From the IMG/VR virus record IMGVR_UViG_3300025732_000019: DNA of 64,000 nt. One strand, written 5' to 3'. Each line of letters opens with the position of its first letter. Position 1 is the stretch's first letter. The notes beneath the pieces were generated by a model. It ran no database searches. It worked only from the letters and a program-made list of their open reading frames with translations, and had not been told where the DNA came from. The translations under genes were made by a program, and so were the position numbers. Shown piece after piece: positions 7,662 to 63,697 of this stretch. The stretch is from a virus.

Positions 7662-8423
7662 ATGCGTCTTGATGCGCTCCATCGTCGGGTCGTTATGGAT
7701 GCGCGGGTGATACAACAGAAAGTCAATGACGTCTTTCCCCGAAAACTTCCTGCCGAATATCGCGGGCGGGCGACAAATATTCAAGCATTTTTGAATCGTT
7801 TGAATACCGTTACAGAACCTTTTGGTGTGAGAAACGTTATTGTTGATGACCCGCGTTTGCTCAAAAATGTCAACAAAATGACTGCGTACTGGATAGCCGA
7901 ACGAGAACTTCCATACGAACAGTCAATGGCAGACATCCGCCTCGAATGGCATGTACACCCACAAGCACATCGTATAGTGTGGAATGTCCGCACATGGGCG
8001 CAGCGTCGATTCTTTTTCTGGACATTCTTGATGCACGAACTATGTCATCGACATCAGAATATCTATCGGGAAAATCGCGACCAGCACGAATCCCGCACCT
8101 ATCGCTCGGATGCCACGCATGAGGATATACGAAGCGATCAGGAGTATCTTGGCGACTATGATGAAATAGAAGCCTATGCGCACGACGTTGCGTTTGAAAT
8201 GCTTATTCAATTCCCCGAATTGTCATTCACGGAAGCGTTGAGTGCGGTTGCGGGGCAAGCTGATGCAGACGACCCGTCATCGTATAGCTTTTTCATGAAA
8301 GCCTTTGAGACGTCACCCAAACATCCCGCACTGAAGATTTTCCAAAAAAAGATTCGACAATGGTATCGAATCTTGAGTGGAAACATGGAATTTTACCATT
8401 CACTTCATTTGGATATCATATAA
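7662..8423 (+). CDS. HExxH zincin-like protein
   Basis: MHELCH and downstream EIEAYA; SD AAGGAGG before ATG 7662; CTAAATA at 7638. Confidence 0.6.
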   Translation: MRLDALHRRVVMDARVIQQKVNDVFPRKLPAEYRGRATNIQAFLNRLNTVTEPFGVRNVIVDDPRLLKNVNKMTAYWIAERELPYEQSMADIRLEWHVHPQAHRIVWNVRTWAQRRFFFWTFLMHELCHRHQNIYRENRDQHESRTYRSDATHEDIRSDQEYLGDYDEIEAYAHDVAFEMLIQFPELSFTEALSAVAGQADADDPSSYSFFMKAFETSPKHPALKIFQKKIRQWYRILSGNMEFYHSLHLDII

Positions 8424-8433
8424 GTACTGACCT

Positions 8434-9675
8434 ATGACGCTACCATCATTTCGTGGATTTCTCGAAGAATCTGCTCCGACAGGAAAACTCACCCACCTGC
8501 AACATTTAGAAGATTTGGTGCTCGATGAAGGTATTGCCGGGCTGGCGTTGGCGGAAGAAGTTCTCCGAGAATTTCATGTCATGCTGCGCGACGGCGGCGT
8601 GTCCCGTTCCATGAATGTACGCACGAAATGGGATGGTGCACCGTCAGTTGTTTTCGGCCACGATCCCGCTGACGGTCAATTCTTTGTCGCAACAAAAGCT
8701 GCCTTCAGTAAAACTCCCAAGCTGATGAAGACGCACGATCAGATTGTCGCAGCCTATGGCGATTCCGGTGTCGCCAACAAGCTGCATACGTGCTTGAGTG
8801 AACTTGCGCTGTTGCGGCCGAAACACATCTTTCAGGGTGACTTAATTTTCACGGATGACGTGCGGGAACAACATATCGACGGCGCCGACTATCTGACGTT
8901 TCGACCGAATACGATTCTGTATGCGGTGGACAAGCACAGCGAGTTCGGTCAACGCATCGCCCGCGCACAACTTGGAATCGTCTTACACAGCATGTATGAG
9001 GGGCATGGAAACTCCTTTGCGAACTATCATGTCGTCTCAACGTCGCCAATGGCGTTTGCGTCATTAGCGCATTCGAGCCGTGTTGTCGCGATTGATAATA
9101 CCTTCGATGATCTCTCCGGTACTGTCACATTCACCGATACCGAAGAAACGGATTTTGTGTTGGCGATGCATCGGATCCGAGAGATTGCCGGTAAAGTACC
9201 TGCCAGCACCATTTCGCTGTTTTCCACGAAACCCCTGCATCCGCTGATTCAGCAATTTTTGAACGCCCGTGTGCGTAGTGGTGCGCATGCAGGCTCCGGT
9301 AGTCGTGCGTTACAGGAATTGGTCAGCTTTCTGACGGATCGCCGCGATAAGGAAATATCGGAACGAAAAACACCTGAAGGCCAAGACCGCATTCGCGCAC
9401 AGTTTGACGGATGGTTGCGAGATCTGATGCAGCATAAAGACCATGCGGAGATGTGGTTCAATCTGCATGCTGCGCTGAATACCGCCAAAATACTGGTACT
9501 CCGCAAACTGGCACAAGCAAAGAACGTCGCGACGTTTGTACCAACACCCGAAGGCCTCCGCGCTACCAGTCATGAGGGATTCGTGGCAACGTCGCATAGC
9601 GGTCGGATGGTGAAATTGGTGGATCGGTTGGAGTTCTCCCGCAACAATTTTTTGGTGCCTAAGCAGTGGGCATAG
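8434..9675 (+). CDS. conserved T4-like protein with ligase-like KWDG motif (DUF6267-like)
   Basis: THLQHLED, TKWDGAPS, QGD, HEGFV, KLVDRLEFSRNNF; usual neighbour of the phage cytidyltransferase. Confidence 0.7.
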   Translation: MTLPSFRGFLEESAPTGKLTHLQHLEDLVLDEGIAGLALAEEVLREFHVMLRDGGVSRSMNVRTKWDGAPSVVFGHDPADGQFFVATKAAFSKTPKLMKTHDQIVAAYGDSGVANKLHTCLSELALLRPKHIFQGDLIFTDDVREQHIDGADYLTFRPNTILYAVDKHSEFGQRIARAQLGIVLHSMYEGHGNSFANYHVVSTSPMAFASLAHSSRVVAIDNTFDDLSGTVTFTDTEETDFVLAMHRIREIAGKVPASTISLFSTKPLHPLIQQFLNARVRSGAHAGSGSRALQELVSFLTDRRDKEISERKTPEGQDRIRAQFDGWLRDLMQHKDHAEMWFNLHAALNTAKILVLRKLAQAKNVATFVPTPEGLRATSHEGFVATSHSGRMVKLVDRLEFSRNNFLVPKQWA

Positions 9676-56585: not shown

Positions 56586-57941
56586 TTACGAAGCCCATTT
56601 ATTGGTACCGACAGGCAGCACGAGGCGGCCTCCGGTGCTATCGAAACGTGCAATCGCATTGACACTGACATTCGCTCGCAAATCCGCGGCCCCCAATACG
56701 GCGAGTGTGCTATTGAGTGTGGTGGCGCCTGTGACCCCGAATGTACTCAGCGCATTGACTGCGCCTGTCACGCCCAAGGTACTCAGCGCATTGACTGCGC
56801 CTGTCACACCGAAAGTGCTCAATGCATTCACCGCGCCGGTCACGGATGCGGTATTGCTGAACGTGGCCGCCCCGGTAATACTTGCGGTTCCACCTATCGT
56901 CACATTACCGAATAGCGAATTGCCTACGACGTGTAACGGAGATGTGGGTGAACTGATATTCACGCCGACACGGTTGTTGACGGTATCGACAAACAAGACG
57001 TTGCTATCAACCGCGACGTTACTGGTAAATGACGCCACACCCGTCACATTGACGGTATCACTGAATGTGGCGGCGCCAGACACAGATAATGTCGTGCTGG
57101 TGCCTGCAGGTGCCGCCAATAACCGCCAACGACCTGTGGCTGTGGTGTACAATAGCGGAATTGAACCACCGGGTGGCACGTCAACATCTTGGTTGGAGAC
57201 AGTCTTGAATCGGTTCAGGGCGCTCGATGACGGGTCTTCACTCTTGAGCGTAATCTTATAGGAACCGGATAGGTTCTGAAGGTATAGTACTTTAGCACCG
57301 ATAGACAGGTTTGTGGGAGCGACAATACCCGTCAGAATAATATTCTGCGTATCCGGATTCATGTGCACGACTTGCGCATCGTGCAATCCACTGGGATTGT
57401 AATTGTCGTATTGTGCTGACGACACGGTAGCCGCAATAACTGCTCCACTTTCGCTGAACAGAATTGACCGCATGTAGGCGGTGTTCGATGCCACCAGATT
57501 GTTCGCAACGGAAACGTTGCTTGCAAATGATGCAACATTACCGATTGTCAGTGGCCCAGATGCGGTAAATGTGACCGCACCATTAAATGTGGCGGCAGCA
57601 TTCACCGATAGCGGGCTGGCGTTAACGACGGTTCCACCGGGCGACTGGAATAGTGTCGTATTCGCGGACACACTGACGACCAGCGCGGAACTATTGACAG
57701 AGACGTTGGCGCCAAATGTCGAGTTTCCCGCAAGAAAAAGACCACTCAAGTTCGCGAGCGTTTTTCCGCCATTAAGCGACAGACTCGTATTTGTATGGGA
57801 AGAATTACCAATCGTGAAGGCACCGATAGCATTGCCGCCCACAACGACGGTATTGCTATTCAAAAGATCAATAACCGTATTGGTACGGGTGACCCATGTG
57901 CGGAACGTATCGGTAGTTTGTATCGGTGTAATCAGTGGCAT
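56586..57941 (-). CDS. fibre-like virion protein
   Basis: S/T/N/V/G-rich beta repeats; LFVDTVNNRVGVN...P...LHV.G; termini shared with 61985-63697. Confidence 0.75.
   Translation of the reverse strand: MPLITPIQTTDTFRTWVTRTNTVIDLLNSNTVVVGGNAIGAFTIGNSSHTNTSLSLNGGKTLANLSGLFLAGNSTFGANVSVNSSALVVSVSANTTLFQSPGGTVVNASPLSVNAAATFNGAVTFTASGPLTIGNVASFASNVSVANNLVASNTAYMRSILFSESGAVIAATVSSAQYDNYNPSGLHDAQVVHMNPDTQNIILTGIVAPTNLSIGAKVLYLQNLSGSYKITLKSEDPSSSALNRFKTVSNQDVDVPPGGSIPLLYTTATGRWRLLAAPAGTSTTLSVSGAATFSDTVNVTGVASFTSNVAVDSNVLFVDTVNNRVGVNISSPTSPLHVVGNSLFGNVTIGGTASITGAATFSNTASVTGAVNALSTFGVTGAVNALSTLGVTGAVNALSTFGVTGATTLNSTLAVLGAADLRANVSVNAIARFDSTGGRLVLPVGTNKWAS
56725..56843 (-). repeat. 36-bp tandem repeat x3.3 (VTGAVNALST[F/L]G)
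   Basis: Units start at 56725, 56761, 56797 and 56833. Confidence 0.85.
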
Positions 57942-57950
57942 AGATGTCTA

Positions 57951-57957
57951 TATTTAG
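57951..57957 (-). promoter_or_regulatory. late promoter
   Basis: CTAAATA, 9 nt from the ATG. Confidence 0.6.
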
Positions 57958-59258
57958 GTAAAAGTTGTCATGACTCCCATTTCCACGTTCGGTGTACGAA
58001 TCAGGGGCGCGGGTGTGCCCACATGATATTGTTCACACAAGGTGCGCACGTCGATTTTTGCTTGCCAATCACTATAGCAATATGGAAACTGATATGGTAT
58101 TTCTCGAATCCACGCCGCAACATTACTTGCGTCTGACGGAGACATTTCCGTCAGACGTGCAGGATTAAACAGCACCGCTGTAGGGTTCCAGTCGCGCCAT
58201 GTGCCGTCTTGAATACGAGCCGCAGTAAACCGTGCTGTCGGAGAAATCGGATGTTGGGCACGATGAATCGCGTCAGCGTTCGTATCCACTCCCGCAATAC
58301 GAATATCTGGTCTATATATAGTTAGTCGTCGCAGCAGATGCCCATTTCCGCATCCGAGATCCAACACACGTGCCTGCTCCGGTAATTGCGTCGCTAACGC
58401 AGGGATCATATCTTCGTGAGTCGTACGCATGCCTTCTGCAGACGAAAATTGATTATCCTTCCATAGCGTCTTTCGAACACGCTCATAGTGCCCCGTACGA
58501 AAGAACTGCTGTTTCTGCGGCGTCCAGTCGCTGCGTGTTGAGATCTTCAACGCAGGTGTGACGATCTCCGCAATACCAAATAGTCGTGACCACTTTAGCG
58601 GCCATGACAAGACTTCACGAATGGTGTGCATCTCCTCACGGTATCCATGTGCGCAACCCAAATCAAACATCGCGTGACCGATGCGTTGCGACGCGTCGCA
58701 CGTATAGGAACACGGCATATGCGACACCAAACGCAGGCCCATCCAGCGCAATAGGGTGCTCGCGTAGGGGTCGCTATTCGGATGCGCACCCTCGCGTGTT
58801 TGTTCCCACGTGCTATCGACACGACCCGCGCCCCATGTGGCATCATACGCGTCTCGGCAGCAGGCGGGATAGCCTAAGAGTTCGCCATACTGCGCATCGG
58901 TTTGTGGAAACGCCCGGTCATAGTATTGCGGGTTCAAATACAAAACCCGATAGACGAATTTTCCATCGCGAATGGGTTGAGAGGTGCTGCTATACGAAGA
59001 GGCAACACCTACGGTAGTTTGTGGTACGCATAGAATGTTATGCCGCGCAGCCCAGCGGGTGGCCTCAATAAGACCATCGGAAGGAACATTCTGAAACGCG
59101 GCGGGTCGCAGACCGTGCACAACAGCCAATCGTTCGACATCTTGATACGCATTACTCGCACGCGTGAACAATGGTTGCCACCACTCGCGTTCATCAGCAC
59201 TGCGCCATGACCATCGTGTCCAATCCGGGAGTACCGGAACATTATCTCTTGTTGACAT
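57954..59258 (-). CDS. Cys-motif (DUF483-like) domain fused to class I SAM methyltransferase
   Basis: LLGYPACC, HMPCSYTC; VLDLGCGNG, GVD; SD GGAG before ATG 59258. Confidence 0.75.
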   Translation of the reverse strand: MSTRDNVPVLPDWTRWSWRSADEREWWQPLFTRASNAYQDVERLAVVHGLRPAAFQNVPSDGLIEATRWAARHNILCVPQTTVGVASSYSSTSQPIRDGKFVYRVLYLNPQYYDRAFPQTDAQYGELLGYPACCRDAYDATWGAGRVDSTWEQTREGAHPNSDPYASTLLRWMGLRLVSHMPCSYTCDASQRIGHAMFDLGCAHGYREEMHTIREVLSWPLKWSRLFGIAEIVTPALKISTRSDWTPQKQQFFRTGHYERVRKTLWKDNQFSSAEGMRTTHEDMIPALATQLPEQARVLDLGCGNGHLLRRLTIYRPDIRIAGVDTNADAIHRAQHPISPTARFTAARIQDGTWRDWNPTAVLFNPARLTEMSPSDASNVAAWIREIPYQFPYCYSDWQAKIDVRTLCEQYHVGTPAPLIRTPNVEMGVMTTFT

Positions 59259-60585
59259 CTGTATGATCTCCATGATCAGAATAATCACCGTGGGGAACGT
59301 CATCGTGCGTATGGGGCTGTGTATCCGTATGATCGCCGTGCTGGTCACCGTGCTTCGTCGCGGGTGTGGTGCTCGATGACGGCTGCGTGTACTTACTCAA
59401 ATATGGCGTTTCTTCTTGCGACCATGCGGCGTACATCTGCGCTTCAATTTCTGTGCGCTTGGGGTGCTCGGAAAACGGCACTTCACCCGCGGCGCGAAGT
59501 CGTCGTGCGCCTTCCGCAAATAGACGCTTGAAGGTGCCGCAGTACGTGGAGCGCATGCGCCAATCGTGATTCGCGCCTTCACCGGGGCATTGCCCGTAAC
59601 ACATGAGCCAATATTCACATCCCTGACATCCACCGTATTCCTGCGGCGTGACATACAACGCAAGTTGTCGTTCAAAATGTCGAGCACCGGGATGACCGAT
59701 AAACGTTGAAGCACCGTTTTTCGTGCCGCATCCTTCGGCCGGCAACCAGTTTTGACCATCCTTATTGGTGCGTGAACAATGCGACGGCGAACCATCATTC
59801 TCAATACCATTTACTGCACTGGTATTCCACGGGTCGCAAGGTTTCCAATGACATACGACTGAATCTCCGTTCCCGCGCTGGAGTTTCAGGATCTCGTCAA
59901 ACTTGGAGATGCGCAACTGTTTGAATGAAGGCAGGATATTCCAGATCTCAATCAGCCGATCTGCAATCTCCTCACTAGGAAGATACAGTTCGTGCGCTTT
60001 ATGATCCATCTCCATCAAATGCATATTGACATGACGCACACCCATTGTGTCTAGTTCGTGCAACCATTCAAGAAATCGAGGAAAGCGATCCGCTCGGCAG
60101 TTGCCGGCATGCAGCGTCACGATCAAACTGGGGAGTAAATGCGGAGTGGTGACCGCGCGGCCGCAGAGTTCTTTCAATGCCCACATGGTACGTTGTGTCT
60201 GTTTTCGTGTCGCCTCTAAAGTGCCTGCCCATCGACTATCGTTCAGTTCATCGGGGCCATCCATTGAGATGCCCACATGCGTGTTATATTTGATGAAGAG
60301 TTCGATGTGTTTTTCGGTAATGAGCGACGCATTCGTTTGCACACCCGAATGGCCAAAACGTGTGTGCGCGATCTGTAACAGTTCGTCTAGATCTTTGAGA
60401 GAAAGAATGAGAGCTTCGCCCCCAAACAAGGAGAAGTATTCGTCCGGCTTGAGCTTGTCGATGGCTGCAAGCACGGCCTTACGGTCATACTTGTGAGATT
60501 TTTGCACATTGCGCATTTCCGTTTCGTAACAATACTTGCATTGTATGTTGCACGTAACACCTACAGGTCTAACTTCAATACTCAT
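59242..60585 (-). CDS. radical SAM/SPASM maturase with His-x-Asp tail
   Basis: CNIQCKYC, GGE, QTN, ISMDG; SPASM C...C...CQGCEYWLMCYGQC...YC. Confidence 0.92.
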   Translation of the reverse strand: MSIEVRPVGVTCNIQCKYCYETEMRNVQKSHKYDRKAVLAAIDKLKPDEYFSLFGGEALILSLKDLDELLQIAHTRFGHSGVQTNASLITEKHIELFIKYNTHVGISMDGPDELNDSRWAGTLEATRKQTQRTMWALKELCGRAVTTPHLLPSLIVTLHAGNCRADRFPRFLEWLHELDTMGVRHVNMHLMEMDHKAHELYLPSEEIADRLIEIWNILPSFKQLRISKFDEILKLQRGNGDSVVCHWKPCDPWNTSAVNGIENDGSPSHCSRTNKDGQNWLPAEGCGTKNGASTFIGHPGARHFERQLALYVTPQEYGGCQGCEYWLMCYGQCPGEGANHDWRMRSTYCGTFKRLFAEGARRLRAAGEVPFSEHPKRTEIEAQMYAAWSQEETPYLSKYTQPSSSTTPATKHGDQHGDHTDTQPHTHDDVPHGDYSDHGDHTDVNKR

Positions 60586-60601: not shown

Positions 60602-61261
60602 CTATGAACCTACGTAGACGGGTTGATCGTTATGTGCGACGTCACTGTGTGTGTCGTCATGAGAGGAACTATCGCTATGCACAGAATCCGTATGCACATC
60701 GACGTGCCCATCGCTGAAATAATCGGCATGATCCGCATGATTGTCGGTATGAGTGTCACCATAATCTGTATGCCACTCTGGCGCATCGTTGTGAAAATAC
60801 GTATCGGTATGTACGTCATCATGATACGAGTCGGAATAGTCTGTATGAGATGAATAATAATCGTCGTGATCACTATAGCCGGCCGCGTCGCCATGACTTA
60901 CACTATCACTATGTGAGTCAGTGTGTGCAATATCATCATGCACCGCATACTCATAGTTATTGTTCCCGATAATCCGCAGTTGTACGTTTCCAGTGGAGGC
61001 ACTCGTGCCTCCGCTATTCGACACCCAAATAGAACCCGCAATAGCGCCTGTGCGGTTCGCAATCGATGTGACGTTGAGTGTGCGGGCAAACCCACTGGCA
61101 TCAACATAGCGAAGATTGGTGCCTTCCACCCACAACGAACCCACAATAGCACCAGATGCTAAACCGGTATTGCTGCCAATCGCGTACCACTCGACACCAG
61201 ATGCATCGATGTAATGTACGGTGTTTCCGGCGACCCAAATGCTACCTGCTGTTTTTGCCAT
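60602..61261 (-). CDS. His-x-Asp repeat protein 2 (19 HxD)
   Basis: GS[I/L]WV x3 N-terminal domain plus HxD/YxD repeat region. Confidence 0.85.
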   Translation of the reverse strand: MAKTAGSIWVAGNTVHYIDASGVEWYAIGSNTGLASGAIVGSLWVEGTNLRYVDASGFARTLNVTSIANRTGAIAGSIWVSNSGGTSASTGNVQLRIIGNNNYEYAVHDDIAHTDSHSDSVSHGDAAGYSDHDDYYSSHTDYSDSYHDDVHTDTYFHNDAPEWHTDYGDTHTDNHADHADYFSDGHVDVHTDSVHSDSSSHDDTHSDVAHNDQPVYVGS

Positions 61262-61265
61262 AATC

Positions 61266-61982
61266 TTATCCTACGTAGACGGGCTGATCGTTATGCGCAA
61301 CGTCACTGTGCGTCACATCCGCATGTGCCACATCGTTGTGTGTGGCACTATCGCTATGTGAATCGCTATGCACAGAATCCGTATGCGAATCGACGTGCCC
61401 ATCGTTGAAATAATCGCCATGATCGGCGTGATTATCGGTATGAGAGTCGCCATAATCTTCATGATACTCCGGCGCATCGTTGTGATAATATGTATCGGTG
61501 TGCGAGTCATCATGATACGAGTCGGAATAGTCTGTATGAGATGAATAATAATCATTGTGATCACTATAGCCGGCAGTATCACTATGTGAATCGTAATGAG
61601 TTACGCTATCGGTGTGCGTAATGTCGCTATGCGGCACATCGGTATGCGACACATCATCATGCACTGCATACTCGTAATTATTGGTGCCGATGATGCGAAG
61701 TTGCACATTACCGGTATTCGCGCTGGTGCCCGAGGTGTTCGACACCCATAGCGACCCCGCGACAGAATTAGCGCGGCTCGCAATCGTCGCGACATTCAGT
61801 GTGCGCTTGTATTGGTTCTCGTCGATGTACGCGAGATTACTGTTTTCGACCCAGATGGAACCGGCGACCGCATTCGAGACAAGACCTGTATTGCTCCCAA
61901 TCGCATACCATTCAACGCCCGAAGCGTCAATATAATGAAACGTGTTTCCGGATACCCACACACTGCCTGCGGTCTTAGCCAT
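61266..61982 (-). CDS. His-x-Asp repeat protein 1 (23 HxD)
   Basis: Paralog of 60602-61261. Confidence 0.85.
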   Translation of the reverse strand: MAKTAGSVWVSGNTFHYIDASGVEWYAIGSNTGLVSNAVAGSIWVENSNLAYIDENQYKRTLNVATIASRANSVAGSLWVSNTSGTSANTGNVQLRIIGTNNYEYAVHDDVSHTDVPHSDITHTDSVTHYDSHSDTAGYSDHNDYYSSHTDYSDSYHDDSHTDTYYHNDAPEYHEDYGDSHTDNHADHGDYFNDGHVDSHTDSVHSDSHSDSATHNDVAHADVTHSDVAHNDQPVYVG

Positions 61983-61984
61983 GA

Positions 61985-63697
61985 TTATGTTGTCGCGTAC
62001 TTATTCGCACCTACCGGCACGACGAGTCTTCCGGAAGTCGTGTCACATCGCACGATACCGTTGGCGCTGACAGAGCCGGCACTCCCGCTGACGCGAAGCA
62101 ATTCAAGTAATGATTGATTGTCTGTATTTGCAGTGCCCACATATCCGATGATGACGTTGCCTGCATCCGCACGCAGTACCGCACCAGCACGTGTGCCGCG
62201 TGTGCGATAGGTATCGCTGTTGGTACCGGCTTCGCAGTTGAATGCGATGAAAGGCGCGCCAGTGGTTTCACTGCCAATAACGGACTGAAACCCATCGTTG
62301 GCCGCGCCGAACTCCATTGACGACCCGCTGCGTCGCACACTCAGGAGTGCGCTGGTGACGGAACCGTTCACCGCAGCATTTCCCACATAGACACCTGTGC
62401 TGTTCGCAACGATCAGGTTCGCGCCTATTGTGGTGTTGCCCGATACGGTAAGTGTACTGAGAGTACCAAGACCGGTGATGCCGGTATACGCACCCGACAA
62501 CTGCGCGTTGGCCAATGTGCCCGTAGTAATGTTCGTCGCGTTCGTATAGTAGGAAGCGGCTTGACCATTGAGATACGTGGTGTTATTCGCCGAATACGAT
62601 GTACCCGTAAACACGGTAGAGTTGACGACAGCGCCATTCAACCCGATACTGCCTGCGGTAATCGCGGTGTTGACGGAACTGTTGCCAACAAAGTACGCGG
62701 ACACATTCAACGAGACGTTTGCGCCCAGCGATACGCTACTGACGAGCAGCGCGGAACTATTCAGACTGGTATTGACAGAGGAGTTTCCAAGTGTGAGTAC
62801 ACTGCCGGTAAACGACAGGTTCGCTGATGCATCAATCGCGTTGGTGCTGGTGTTCCAATATTGCACCGCACCATTTCCACCTGCGCTACTTCCACCCGAG
62901 ACGGTACTCCAATACGCAGTCGTTCCATTTGACGTGAGCACCTGTCCAGAAGTGCCAGTGCTACCATTAGCAGTAATGGTTCGATCTACGGGCACCACGA
63001 GGCCCGTCGTAATCGCGGAAGACGTAATCGTCGTATTGACGCTACTGTTCCCTATGACAATCGCTGACGTGTTACTGACCACATTCGCGCCGACGGCCAG
63101 TGCTGTAGTATTGGCCACGACGTTGCCTGTCGTCACGGTTGTGAATGACGGAGTGTCCGAGATCGAAACCGCAACGCTTCCCGATGATGCATTGACGGAG
63201 ATTGGTAGTTGCCCAGCAAGTGCGGTGACACCAAGATTCGTGATGACGCCGGTGCTGTTACTATAGCCAATACCCGCACCATTGCTTACCGCGGCACGTG
63301 CGCGAGTATCGGTATAGTATTGATTGGTGCCTTCGGGAACAGCCGTCGTATTGATCGCGGCGCCATTGAGAGTGAGTGTGCCACTGACCGTCAGATTACC
63401 GGTACTTGTGTTTGTGCTCACATTCAATGTGGCAATTGATGCGTTTCCGCTGACGACCAGCGCGACGGTATTGATCGTGGCGTTGACAGTTAGATTGGCG
63501 TTTGCAGAGGTGTTTCCACGCAGACTCGTCGTCGCGAGAACCGTCAGCGTATTCGTCGTGATCTGCTCGACGACCAAATTACCGGAGATGTCACCAATTT
63601 TCAATACATTCGTGTTGAGTTCCGTCGCTACCGCATTGACGGTTGTGACAAGATCTTCGAACGTATTTGCAAGTGTCAGTGGATCGATAGTGGCCAT
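61985..63697 (-). CDS. fibre-like virion protein
   Basis: VPEGTNQYYTDTRARAA, GTSGQVLTSNG, YLNGQAASYY fibre motifs. Confidence 0.8.
   Translation of the reverse strand: MATIDPLTLANTFEDLVTTVNAVATELNTNVLKIGDISGNLVVEQITTNTLTVLATTSLRGNTSANANLTVNATINTVALVVSGNASIATLNVSTNTSTGNLTVSGTLTLNGAAINTTAVPEGTNQYYTDTRARAAVSNGAGIGYSNSTGVITNLGVTALAGQLPISVNASSGSVAVSISDTPSFTTVTTGNVVANTTALAVGANVVSNTSAIVIGNSSVNTTITSSAITTGLVVPVDRTITANGSTGTSGQVLTSNGTTAYWSTVSGGSSAGGNGAVQYWNTSTNAIDASANLSFTGSVLTLGNSSVNTSLNSSALLVSSVSLGANVSLNVSAYFVGNSSVNTAITAGSIGLNGAVVNSTVFTGTSYSANNTTYLNGQAASYYTNATNITTGTLANAQLSGAYTGITGLGTLSTLTVSGNTTIGANLIVANSTGVYVGNAAVNGSVTSALLSVRRSGSSMEFGAANDGFQSVIGSETTGAPFIAFNCEAGTNSDTYRTRGTRAGAVLRADAGNVIIGYVGTANTDNQSLLELLRVSGSAGSVSANGIVRCDTTSGRLVVPVGANKYATT

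Follow-up and report, generated by a model that had tools for sequence, protein, structure and literature searches.

The 64,000-nucleotide stretch of viral DNA from IMG/VR record IMGVR_UViG_3300025732_000019 (the window, meaning the whole stretch that was analysed) encodes a radical S-adenosylmethionine (SAM) enzyme, here rSAM, which ends in a disordered tail of repeated His-x-Asp triplets. Judging from its terminase, which is T4-like and shares about 45% identity with its counterparts in cyanomyoviruses and in the Methylophilales phage Melnitz, the source is an uncultured T4-like phage. Across the homologous sequences compared, the tail is a hallmark of the enzyme family. At a probability of roughly 0.4, it may be a cis substrate mimic that engages the H-x-D-reading sites of its gene cassette and is probably itself modified. 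The enzyme and its tail are located as follows.

59242..60585, minus strand: radical SAM/SPASM enzyme, 447 aa, without an N-terminal RRE (ribosomally synthesised and post-translationally modified peptide recognition element) domain; identified by Pfam PF04055, AlphaFold2 (AF2) and Foldseek
59242..59376, minus strand: disordered C-terminal tail, residues 404-447 and stop, with a Ser/Thr/Pro linker followed by seven H-x-D and one Y-S-D; identified by translation, AF2, shuffles and homologues

The C-terminus of the 447-residue enzyme reads ...SSSTTPATKHGDQHGDHTDTQPHTHDDVPHGDYSDHGDHTDVNKR (translation of 59242-60585), and the end that follows the Ser/Thr/Pro linker is KHGDQHGDHTDTQPHTHDDVPHGDYSDHGDHTDVNKR. 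The first-pass annotation described a Ser/Thr linker, which is real according to the translation, and a tail with seven HxD and one YSD, a count that is reproduced. Its span for the tail, 59242-59360, does include the 37 quoted residues at 59245-59355 and the stop codon at 59242-59244, but it extends five bases too far at the end. When the residues of the tail are shuffled 100,000 times, [HY]-x-D occurs 2.1 times on average and none of the shuffles reaches eight, so the order of the residues is non-random beyond what composition alone would give. Only three HxD-dense open reading frames (ORFs) are present in the 94.6-kb contig to which the window belongs, namely the neighbouring pair of repeat proteins, with 23 and 19 motifs, and the enzyme with its tail (7), and the next-best ORF has three motifs in about 560 aa.

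The first-pass annotation had named a lack of conservation among homologues as an observation that would count against its proposal, and the opposite is found. At least one H-x-D follows the core in 110 of 117 homologues (42-100% identity), at least two in 96, and the hexamer HGDHxD is present in 80. The motif density per 100 aa in these homologues is 11.2 for the tails versus 0.15 for the cores. A profile search was also run on 1.84 billion representatives (50% clustering), with counts taken from the best 150; here, 76 of the 98 stand-alone enzymes have at least two motifs after the core. The tail is kept in the enzymes of Thermus phages at 35-40% identity, including phiLo with nine motifs and Cumys, whose enzyme ends in ...PEHGDYTDHGDAPHGDHWDG, and it recurs in the IMG/VR loci L015, L017 and L018 (34-41% identity). 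It thus spans T4-like aquatic phages, Thermus phages and many of the clustered metagenome representatives. The minimal form ...KGMVPVPGGYHGDHTDA has a single copy of the motif, and the upper end is about 25 copies, in enzymes as long as 673 aa. The tail is confined to the rSAM enzyme and never occurs on the DUF483/methyltransferase protein encoded with it. Literature searches on HxD with radical SAM and tail fibre, and on fusions of rSAM enzymes with precursors, returned no earlier description of the tail.

In the AF2 model, residues 404-447 of the window enzyme have a predicted local distance difference test score (pLDDT) below 50 and are predicted to be disordered. The model of the minimal-tail homologue P0057 contains a short IPV-PG-GYH hairpin that holds the first YHGD, with a mean pLDDT of 84 for residues 401-410; over the last five residues, the pLDDT falls to 60.

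The enzyme is part of a gene cassette that includes two repeat proteins, presumed to be its substrates, and a partner protein with a DUF483-like domain.

61266..61982, minus strand: paralogous HxD-array protein, 238 aa, with a three-GSxWV head, 23 H-x-D and 7 [YFW]-x-D; presumed substrate
60602..61261, minus strand: HxD-array protein, 219 aa, with a head of three GSxWV...L.Y.D..G repeats, 19 H-x-D and 7 [YFW]-x-D, ending in HNDQPVYVGS; presumed substrate
57954..59258, minus strand: DUF483-like Cys-motif domain fused to a class I SAM methyltransferase, 434 aa from ATG 59258; identified by Pfam methyltransferase families and a home-made DUF483 hidden Markov model (HMM)

The two array paralogues share about 71% nucleotide identity. 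For the 219-aa protein, no match was obtained in Pfam, PHROG or PDB sequences, and searches with the array proteins in PHROGs, the PDB sequence search and the ESM Atlas gave no family match. The co-oriented trio of array protein, rSAM/SPASM enzyme and DUF483-like gene occupies 61982-57954 of the window and is also present in loci L001, L003-L018, L020 and L022. Every locus read from metagenomes or IMG/VR contains the cassette, as do the Thermus phages Cumys, phiMa and phiLo. With the home-made HMM, the DUF483-like gene was located directly after the last rSAM gene in 23 of 23 loci searched. In the window, it overlaps the stop of the rSAM gene by 17 nt, its start being placed from the homologues in L003 and L020. 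Given this most likely start, ATG 59258, only these 17 nt of the tail coding sequence are shared with the downstream gene.

An explanation of the tail as an artefact of overlapping genes was considered and rejected. An alternative frame is open from GTG 59348, yet the homologues put the DUF483 start at ATG 59258. The DUF483 gene frame has no stop codon in the 30-400 nt that precede its likely start, where it runs through the region coding for the tail (window 59242-59348; rSAM 3' ends in L001, L003 and L007); this is probably a by-product of the stop-free CAY-GGN-GAY repeats.

In a 2024 paper, a three-gene "rSAM module" was described in the Thermus phages Cumys and phiMa, and a role in DNA modification was suggested (PMC11437467). 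This module is the same cassette of array protein, rSAM enzyme and DUF483 protein, and the passages searched in that paper contain no mention of the HxD arrays or the enzyme tail (PMC11437467). Thus, the cassette is already known, while the novelty, as far as could be found, lies in the conservation of the tail, in its dialect and in the way DUF483 fusion excludes it.

The tail had been described as having the same grammar as the neighbouring repeat proteins, independently tying the enzyme to them. The H-x-D syntax is indeed common to both, and every locus that could be read carries the cassette in which they are encoded together. Pooled over 157 tails, with expected values from shuffles, H.D is observed 1130 times versus 193 expected (z = 82). 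The related spacings are depleted, with 6 observed versus 154 expected for H.H, 48 versus 201 for D.D, and 5 versus 47 for H.E. Y.D is not enriched in tails overall (29 versus 26 expected), but the in-register form D-Y-x-D-H is (8 versus 0.4). The arrays follow the same pattern with a broader choice of first residue: in 18 array proteins (15 loci), H-x-D is counted 517 times, Y-x-D 74 times, W-x-D 17 times and F-x-D 10 times.

The identity of grammar does not extend to dialect. The middle residue X2 is Gly in 55% and Thr in 19% of tail motifs, versus Thr in 30%, Ser in 23% and Gly in 10% of motifs in the 18 array proteins. The residue preceding His is Asp (34%) or Pro (22%) in tails, and Ala, Ser or Thr in arrays. 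The first triplet position is almost only His in tails, versus 16% Tyr/Trp/Phe in arrays. Typical tails read (P)HGD or HGDHTD and the neighbouring arrays mostly A/S/T-H-T/S-D. In long tails, the unit (V)PHGD(x)HGDHTD recurs, with no array sequence copied. HxN variants are present in both the arrays and the tail of L004; L008 and L009 have HxN arrays but no HxN in their tails.

Comparison with a close relative indicates that the tail evolves more slowly than the arrays. In locus L025, the rSAM DNA is 95.8% identical to that of the window and 42 of the 44 tail residues are identical. The corresponding array protein (L025:105-785 versus window 60602-61261) is 69% identical overall, with a nearly unchanged head and a divergent array containing insertions and deletions. 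This argues that the tail is under a constraint of its own while the arrays diversify fast. The tail codons differ at three positions between the two phages, which is too few for an estimate of dN/dS. The tail as a recent copy of the arrays, or a product of gene conversion from them, was rejected, as blastn-short returned only words of 7-9 nt, each about one motif long. The hypervariability of the arrays is what is expected of a host-contact surface.

The enzyme core carries CxxxCxxC at C12/C16/C19 (60529-60552), which is the radical SAM cluster motif. Pfam model Radical_SAM (PF04055) matches with 53.7 bits versus a gathering cutoff of 29.5, placing the enzyme in the radical SAM superfamily. 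The SPASM domain named in the first-pass annotation is backed by eight cysteines, C245, C250, C270, C320, C323, C329, C333 and C349 (59539-59853), which are invariant in the 117 homologues, and by fold matches. A Pfam scan at E <= 0.01 returned only Radical_SAM and Fer4_12 and no SPASM model among the matches; assignment to the SPASM subfamily is based on the cysteine pattern and the predicted fold. The AF2 model, built with 117 sequences, has a pLDDT of about 95 for residues 1-403 and a predicted template modelling score (pTM) of 0.87. Its best Foldseek match is ChlB (9gm3/9gmc, E 4e-12), followed by anSMEcpe (4k36-39), and the folds of CteB and SuiB are also among the matches. As the radical SAM motif begins at residue 12, there is no space for an N-terminal RRE domain.

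Sub-threshold NCBIfam similarities were obtained to AmcB, anSME, DynA, DarW, YhhB, GrrM/OscB and XyeB. For the curated cyclophane-maturase families, the scores lie below the cutoffs, with 69.9 bits versus 425 for AmcB (1.9e-19), 45.7 versus 445 for YhhB, 37.5 versus 310 for GrrM/OscB and 36.3 versus 450 for XyeB, and the enzyme is not a member of any of them by sequence. Likewise, the anSME model TIGR03942 gives 69.2 bits versus a cutoff of 349.45, which places the enzyme outside this equivalog. As all NCBIfam scores are far under the curated cutoffs, the enzyme represents a separate family with a leader-independent or cyclophane-type SPASM fold.

Triceptide synthases act on aromatic-X2-X3 motifs, and His is a known first residue (PMC11499958). 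Among the enzymes that target His motifs are HaaB, YhhB and HtkB, the last of which joins His-C2 to Lys-C-beta (PMC11499958). The motifs of the neighbouring arrays fit the aromatic-X2-X3 pattern, so cross-linking of an aromatic residue to Asp C-beta is the most likely chemistry. Judged by motif and predicted fold, the enzyme most likely links His/Tyr/Trp/Phe to Asp C-beta in a triceptide-type reaction on the [H/Y/F/W]-x-D triplets of the two array proteins. The triceptide synthases, which form three-residue cyclophanes (for example ChlB, HtkB, HaaB, YhhB, XyeB, OscB/GrrM and AmcB), share the rSAM and SPASM fold of the phage enzyme, and ChlB, the closest fold, has been solved with the leader of its precursor and with a precursor mutant. 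In contrast to these synthases, the phage enzyme lacks leader-peptide/RRE logic, and its presumed substrates are fibre-region proteins of 219-430 aa with 19-54 motifs and Asp as the third residue. Furthermore, its cassette includes an obligate DUF483(-methyltransferase) partner, and the enzyme bears a motif tail of its own; no description of such a tail on any triceptide synthase was found in the literature searched.

Two other systems offer comparisons. The whole phage core aligns with anSME (PDB 4k36-4k39), residues 4-365 matching positions 3-359 of the 363-position model (E 3e-19). In both, two auxiliary clusters are fully ligated by Cys (eight in all), an RRE is missing, and the target, presumed for the phage enzyme, is a short motif inside a protein. 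However, the anSME target C/S-x-P/A-x-R is not present in the neighbours of the phage enzyme, none of the cassette genes (fibres, two arrays, rSAM and DUF483-methyltransferase) matched a sulfatase family in Pfam, and anSME has neither a substrate-like tail nor a DUF483 partner. The His-Xaa-Ser system, with HxsA repeats and the rSAM maturases HxsB and HxsC, likewise combines a substrate of His-x-small-residue repeats with rSAM maturases. The HxsB model reaches only 30 bits versus a cutoff of 370, and the third residue is Asp in the phage motif and Ser in His-Xaa-Ser. The HxsB match starts at model position 91, which implies that an N-terminal domain is absent from the phage enzyme.

In the proposal of a cis substrate mimic, the conserved disordered tail would present copies of the enzyme's own recognition triplet at the C-terminus of a putatively leader-independent rSAM/SPASM protein maturase. 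It would be read by the same sites as the arrays, namely the peptide cleft of the rSAM enzyme (its own or that of a second enzyme molecule), an HxD-binding surface of the obligatory DUF483 partner, or both. Owing to its flexibility, the tail would provide a high local concentration of HxD at the cleft. It could thereby act as a built-in pseudo-substrate and a tether that holds together the separate rSAM and DUF483-methyltransferase polypeptides and the multivalent array. If any accessible HxD suffices for catalysis, the tail is probably cross-linked too.

A pointer to a tether comes from fusions of the enzyme to DUF483, which account for 35 of the best 150 representatives, two of them also carrying a methyltransferase. 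DUF483 starts in these proteins at the point where the tail would start, and tail and fusion exclude each other: 26 of the 35 fusions have no H-x-D after the core and only 3 have at least two (Fisher p 4e-13), an anticorrelation that comes mainly from one large clade and so represents few independent events. Loss of the tail upon covalent fusion suggests that it helps to hold a two-polypeptide machine and its array together, and its absence from the DUF483/methyltransferase protein points to the same tether role. One fusion adjoins a convergent HxD-array gene, which indicates that such fusions work on substrates of the same type. Within the fused clade, two nested members without DUF483 have 24 and 18 HxD in its place.

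Single polypeptides that combine rSAM, DUF483 and methyltransferase are P0135 and P0143, and P0135 adjoins a convergent HxD/HxN-array gene (L023 6001-8745 and 8763-9575). By a Rosetta-stone argument, such fusions suggest that the rSAM enzyme and the DUF483-methyltransferase of the window act together.

Tandem rSAM paralogues occur in several phages (L004 2727-7233; L020 4571-7236; L008, L011 and L013). Two phage enzymes without a tail, P0108 and P0114, each come second in a tandem pair in which the first rSAM is tailed. In L004 and L020, the first rSAM is tailed and the second, adjoining DUF483, is tail-less. In L011 and L013, the tail of the first rSAM is long (19-24 motifs, ending in ...GKKVxLW) and that of the second is short; the order is reversed in L008.

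Several observations weigh against a substrate mimic, in addition to the few events behind the fusion statistics. The Gly-rich dialect of the tail differs from that of the arrays, and the two could be read at different sites. The AF2 model leaves the window tail undocked. Both the tail and DUF483 are missing from three short enzymes inside the fused clade. In the P0040 lineage (12 contigs), one tail-less rSAM is encoded with a separate DUF483 protein and an HxD-array ORF, which implies that the tail can be lost without fusion. Judged from DUF483 fusions, second tandem rSAMs and this lineage, the tail is not indispensable in every setting. The array ORF of the P0040 lineage was overlooked by the gene caller. 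In L022, an overlooked HxD-array ORF lies at 8119-9219 (+), where three small minus-strand genes were called instead; unlike the others, it has its array at the N-terminus, followed by a linker rich in Ser/Pro/Ala and a C-terminal part that looks beta-rich and immunoglobulin-like by eye, with no GSxWV head.

A stronger version of the substrate mimic is doubtful. Here, the tail would be a new recognition device, a multivalent pseudo-substrate that replaces leader/RRE logic, couples the rSAM enzyme to the DUF483-methyltransferase and the arrays, and is consumed by cross-linking. Radical SAM maturases are usually thought to find their substrates via leader peptides and RRE domains, or by direct motif recognition. 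A family of enzymes whose disordered tails carry copies of the motif that they target would, if this holds, represent a new principle of control or recognition. Cross-linking of the tail could then serve as a built-in timer or as stoichiometry control per enzyme molecule in fibre assembly. The location of the tail on the enzyme itself also offers a handle on the chemistry of H-x-D triplets that avoids handling the repeat-rich fibre proteins.

A specific metal-binding tail, with His and Asp at i, i+2 chelating Fe, Zn, Ni or Mn, is an unlikely alternative. The tail could in this case act as a metallochaperone and load metal onto the HxD arrays, for which a metal-stapled needle is a possible form, or it could provide local iron for the three Fe-S clusters of the enzyme. 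The T4 gp37 HxH needle binds iron, and by analogy HxD arrays in fibre-region proteins plausibly bind metals as well. The composition of the tails is suitable (13% His, 14% Asp and 12% Gly), with two His and two Asp within the six residues of HGDHTD, and the number of tail motifs scales loosely with that of array motifs, a modest correlation that is uncorrected for kinship (rho 0.53, p 0.02, n 18) and that also speaks for a substrate mimic. However, HH and HxH are typical of generic His-rich metal tails, and these tails show a 25-fold depletion of H.H; the strict syntax argues against a tail of this kind. A single HGD would be a poor chelator, yet it is conserved in the minimal-tail clade. Moreover, fusion to DUF483 should leave the need for a metallochaperone intact, yet the fused enzymes are tail-less.

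It is quite improbable that the tail is a genuine fused core peptide, although the architecture has a precedent in borosin precursors, in which the core peptide is located at the C-terminus of the modifying enzyme (PMC7878506). By this account, the enzyme would act on the C-terminus of its own chain or on that of its dimer partner, and the product would be the modified tail itself, either released or functional while still attached. Borosins of the OphMA type resemble the phage enzyme in that a single polypeptide comprises the enzyme and, at the C-terminus, a series of the residues that it targets (PMC7878506). The disorder of the tail and its proximity in sequence to the active site are in line with such a function, as are members with 18-25 motifs in tails of ~125-315 residues, a motif count like that of free-standing arrays. 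Borosins differ in that the enzyme is an alpha-N-methyltransferase with other chemistry and the tail is the sole substrate, released as product. In the phage loci checked, separate array proteins with 19-54 motifs are present, the cassette encodes no protease, and its setting is a virion-fibre module and not a secreted-peptide cluster. Minimal tails hold one motif only, and long tails repeat the tail dialect in place of array sequence.

Very unlikely is a largely neutral low-complexity appendage kept by replication slippage of the CAY-GGN-GAY repeats: copy numbers from 0 to about 25 among relatives, loss in several lineages and predicted disorder would suit it, but the motif persists over 34-100% identity, very different phage hosts and 50%-clustered metagenome representatives, its residue order is far from compositional expectation, it is nearly unchanged between two phages with widely different arrays, and the co-encoded DUF483/methyltransferase has no such tail. 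The remaining probability belongs to roles other than a substrate mimic and these three alternatives.

The cassette of the window is flanked by two fibre-like proteins.

61985..63697, minus strand: fibre-like protein, 570 aa, upstream flank of the cassette
56586..57941, minus strand: fibre-like protein, 451 aa, downstream flank of the cassette

The 570-aa protein gave no family match in Pfam or PHROGs. Fibres homologous to the 451-aa protein adjoin the cassette in L003 and L022. The cassette is located just before gp13 in L003, L020 and L022, and homologues of gp14 and gp15 follow in L003 and L022. The system appears to modify virion-fibre proteins of the phage post-translationally; the searchable papers contained no experimental demonstration of such a modification by this system.

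A hydrophobic-[VIL]-P-V motif is present in 38 of 200 tails versus about 5 expected, including P0021-P0068, P0001, P0003 and many representatives. It is often positioned at the extreme C-terminus or right before YHGD and is not part of the window tail. The motif resembles the C-terminal peptide common to the two fibres of the window (..GRLVLPVGTNKWAS and ..GRLVVPVGANKYATT).

Large insertions that resemble inteins by look alone are present in the homologues P0036 (residues ~20-155) and P0190 (residues ~330-700). The insertion in P0036 sits after the last Cys of CxxxCxxC and ends in ...THNC. In some phages, genes for 2-oxoglutarate (2OG)-Fe(II) oxygenases and a conserved ~300-aa protein with an H-E-x-G-H motif lie beside the cassette (L004 10039-10626; L020 902-1588 and 3998-4570), and their products may be further tailoring enzymes.

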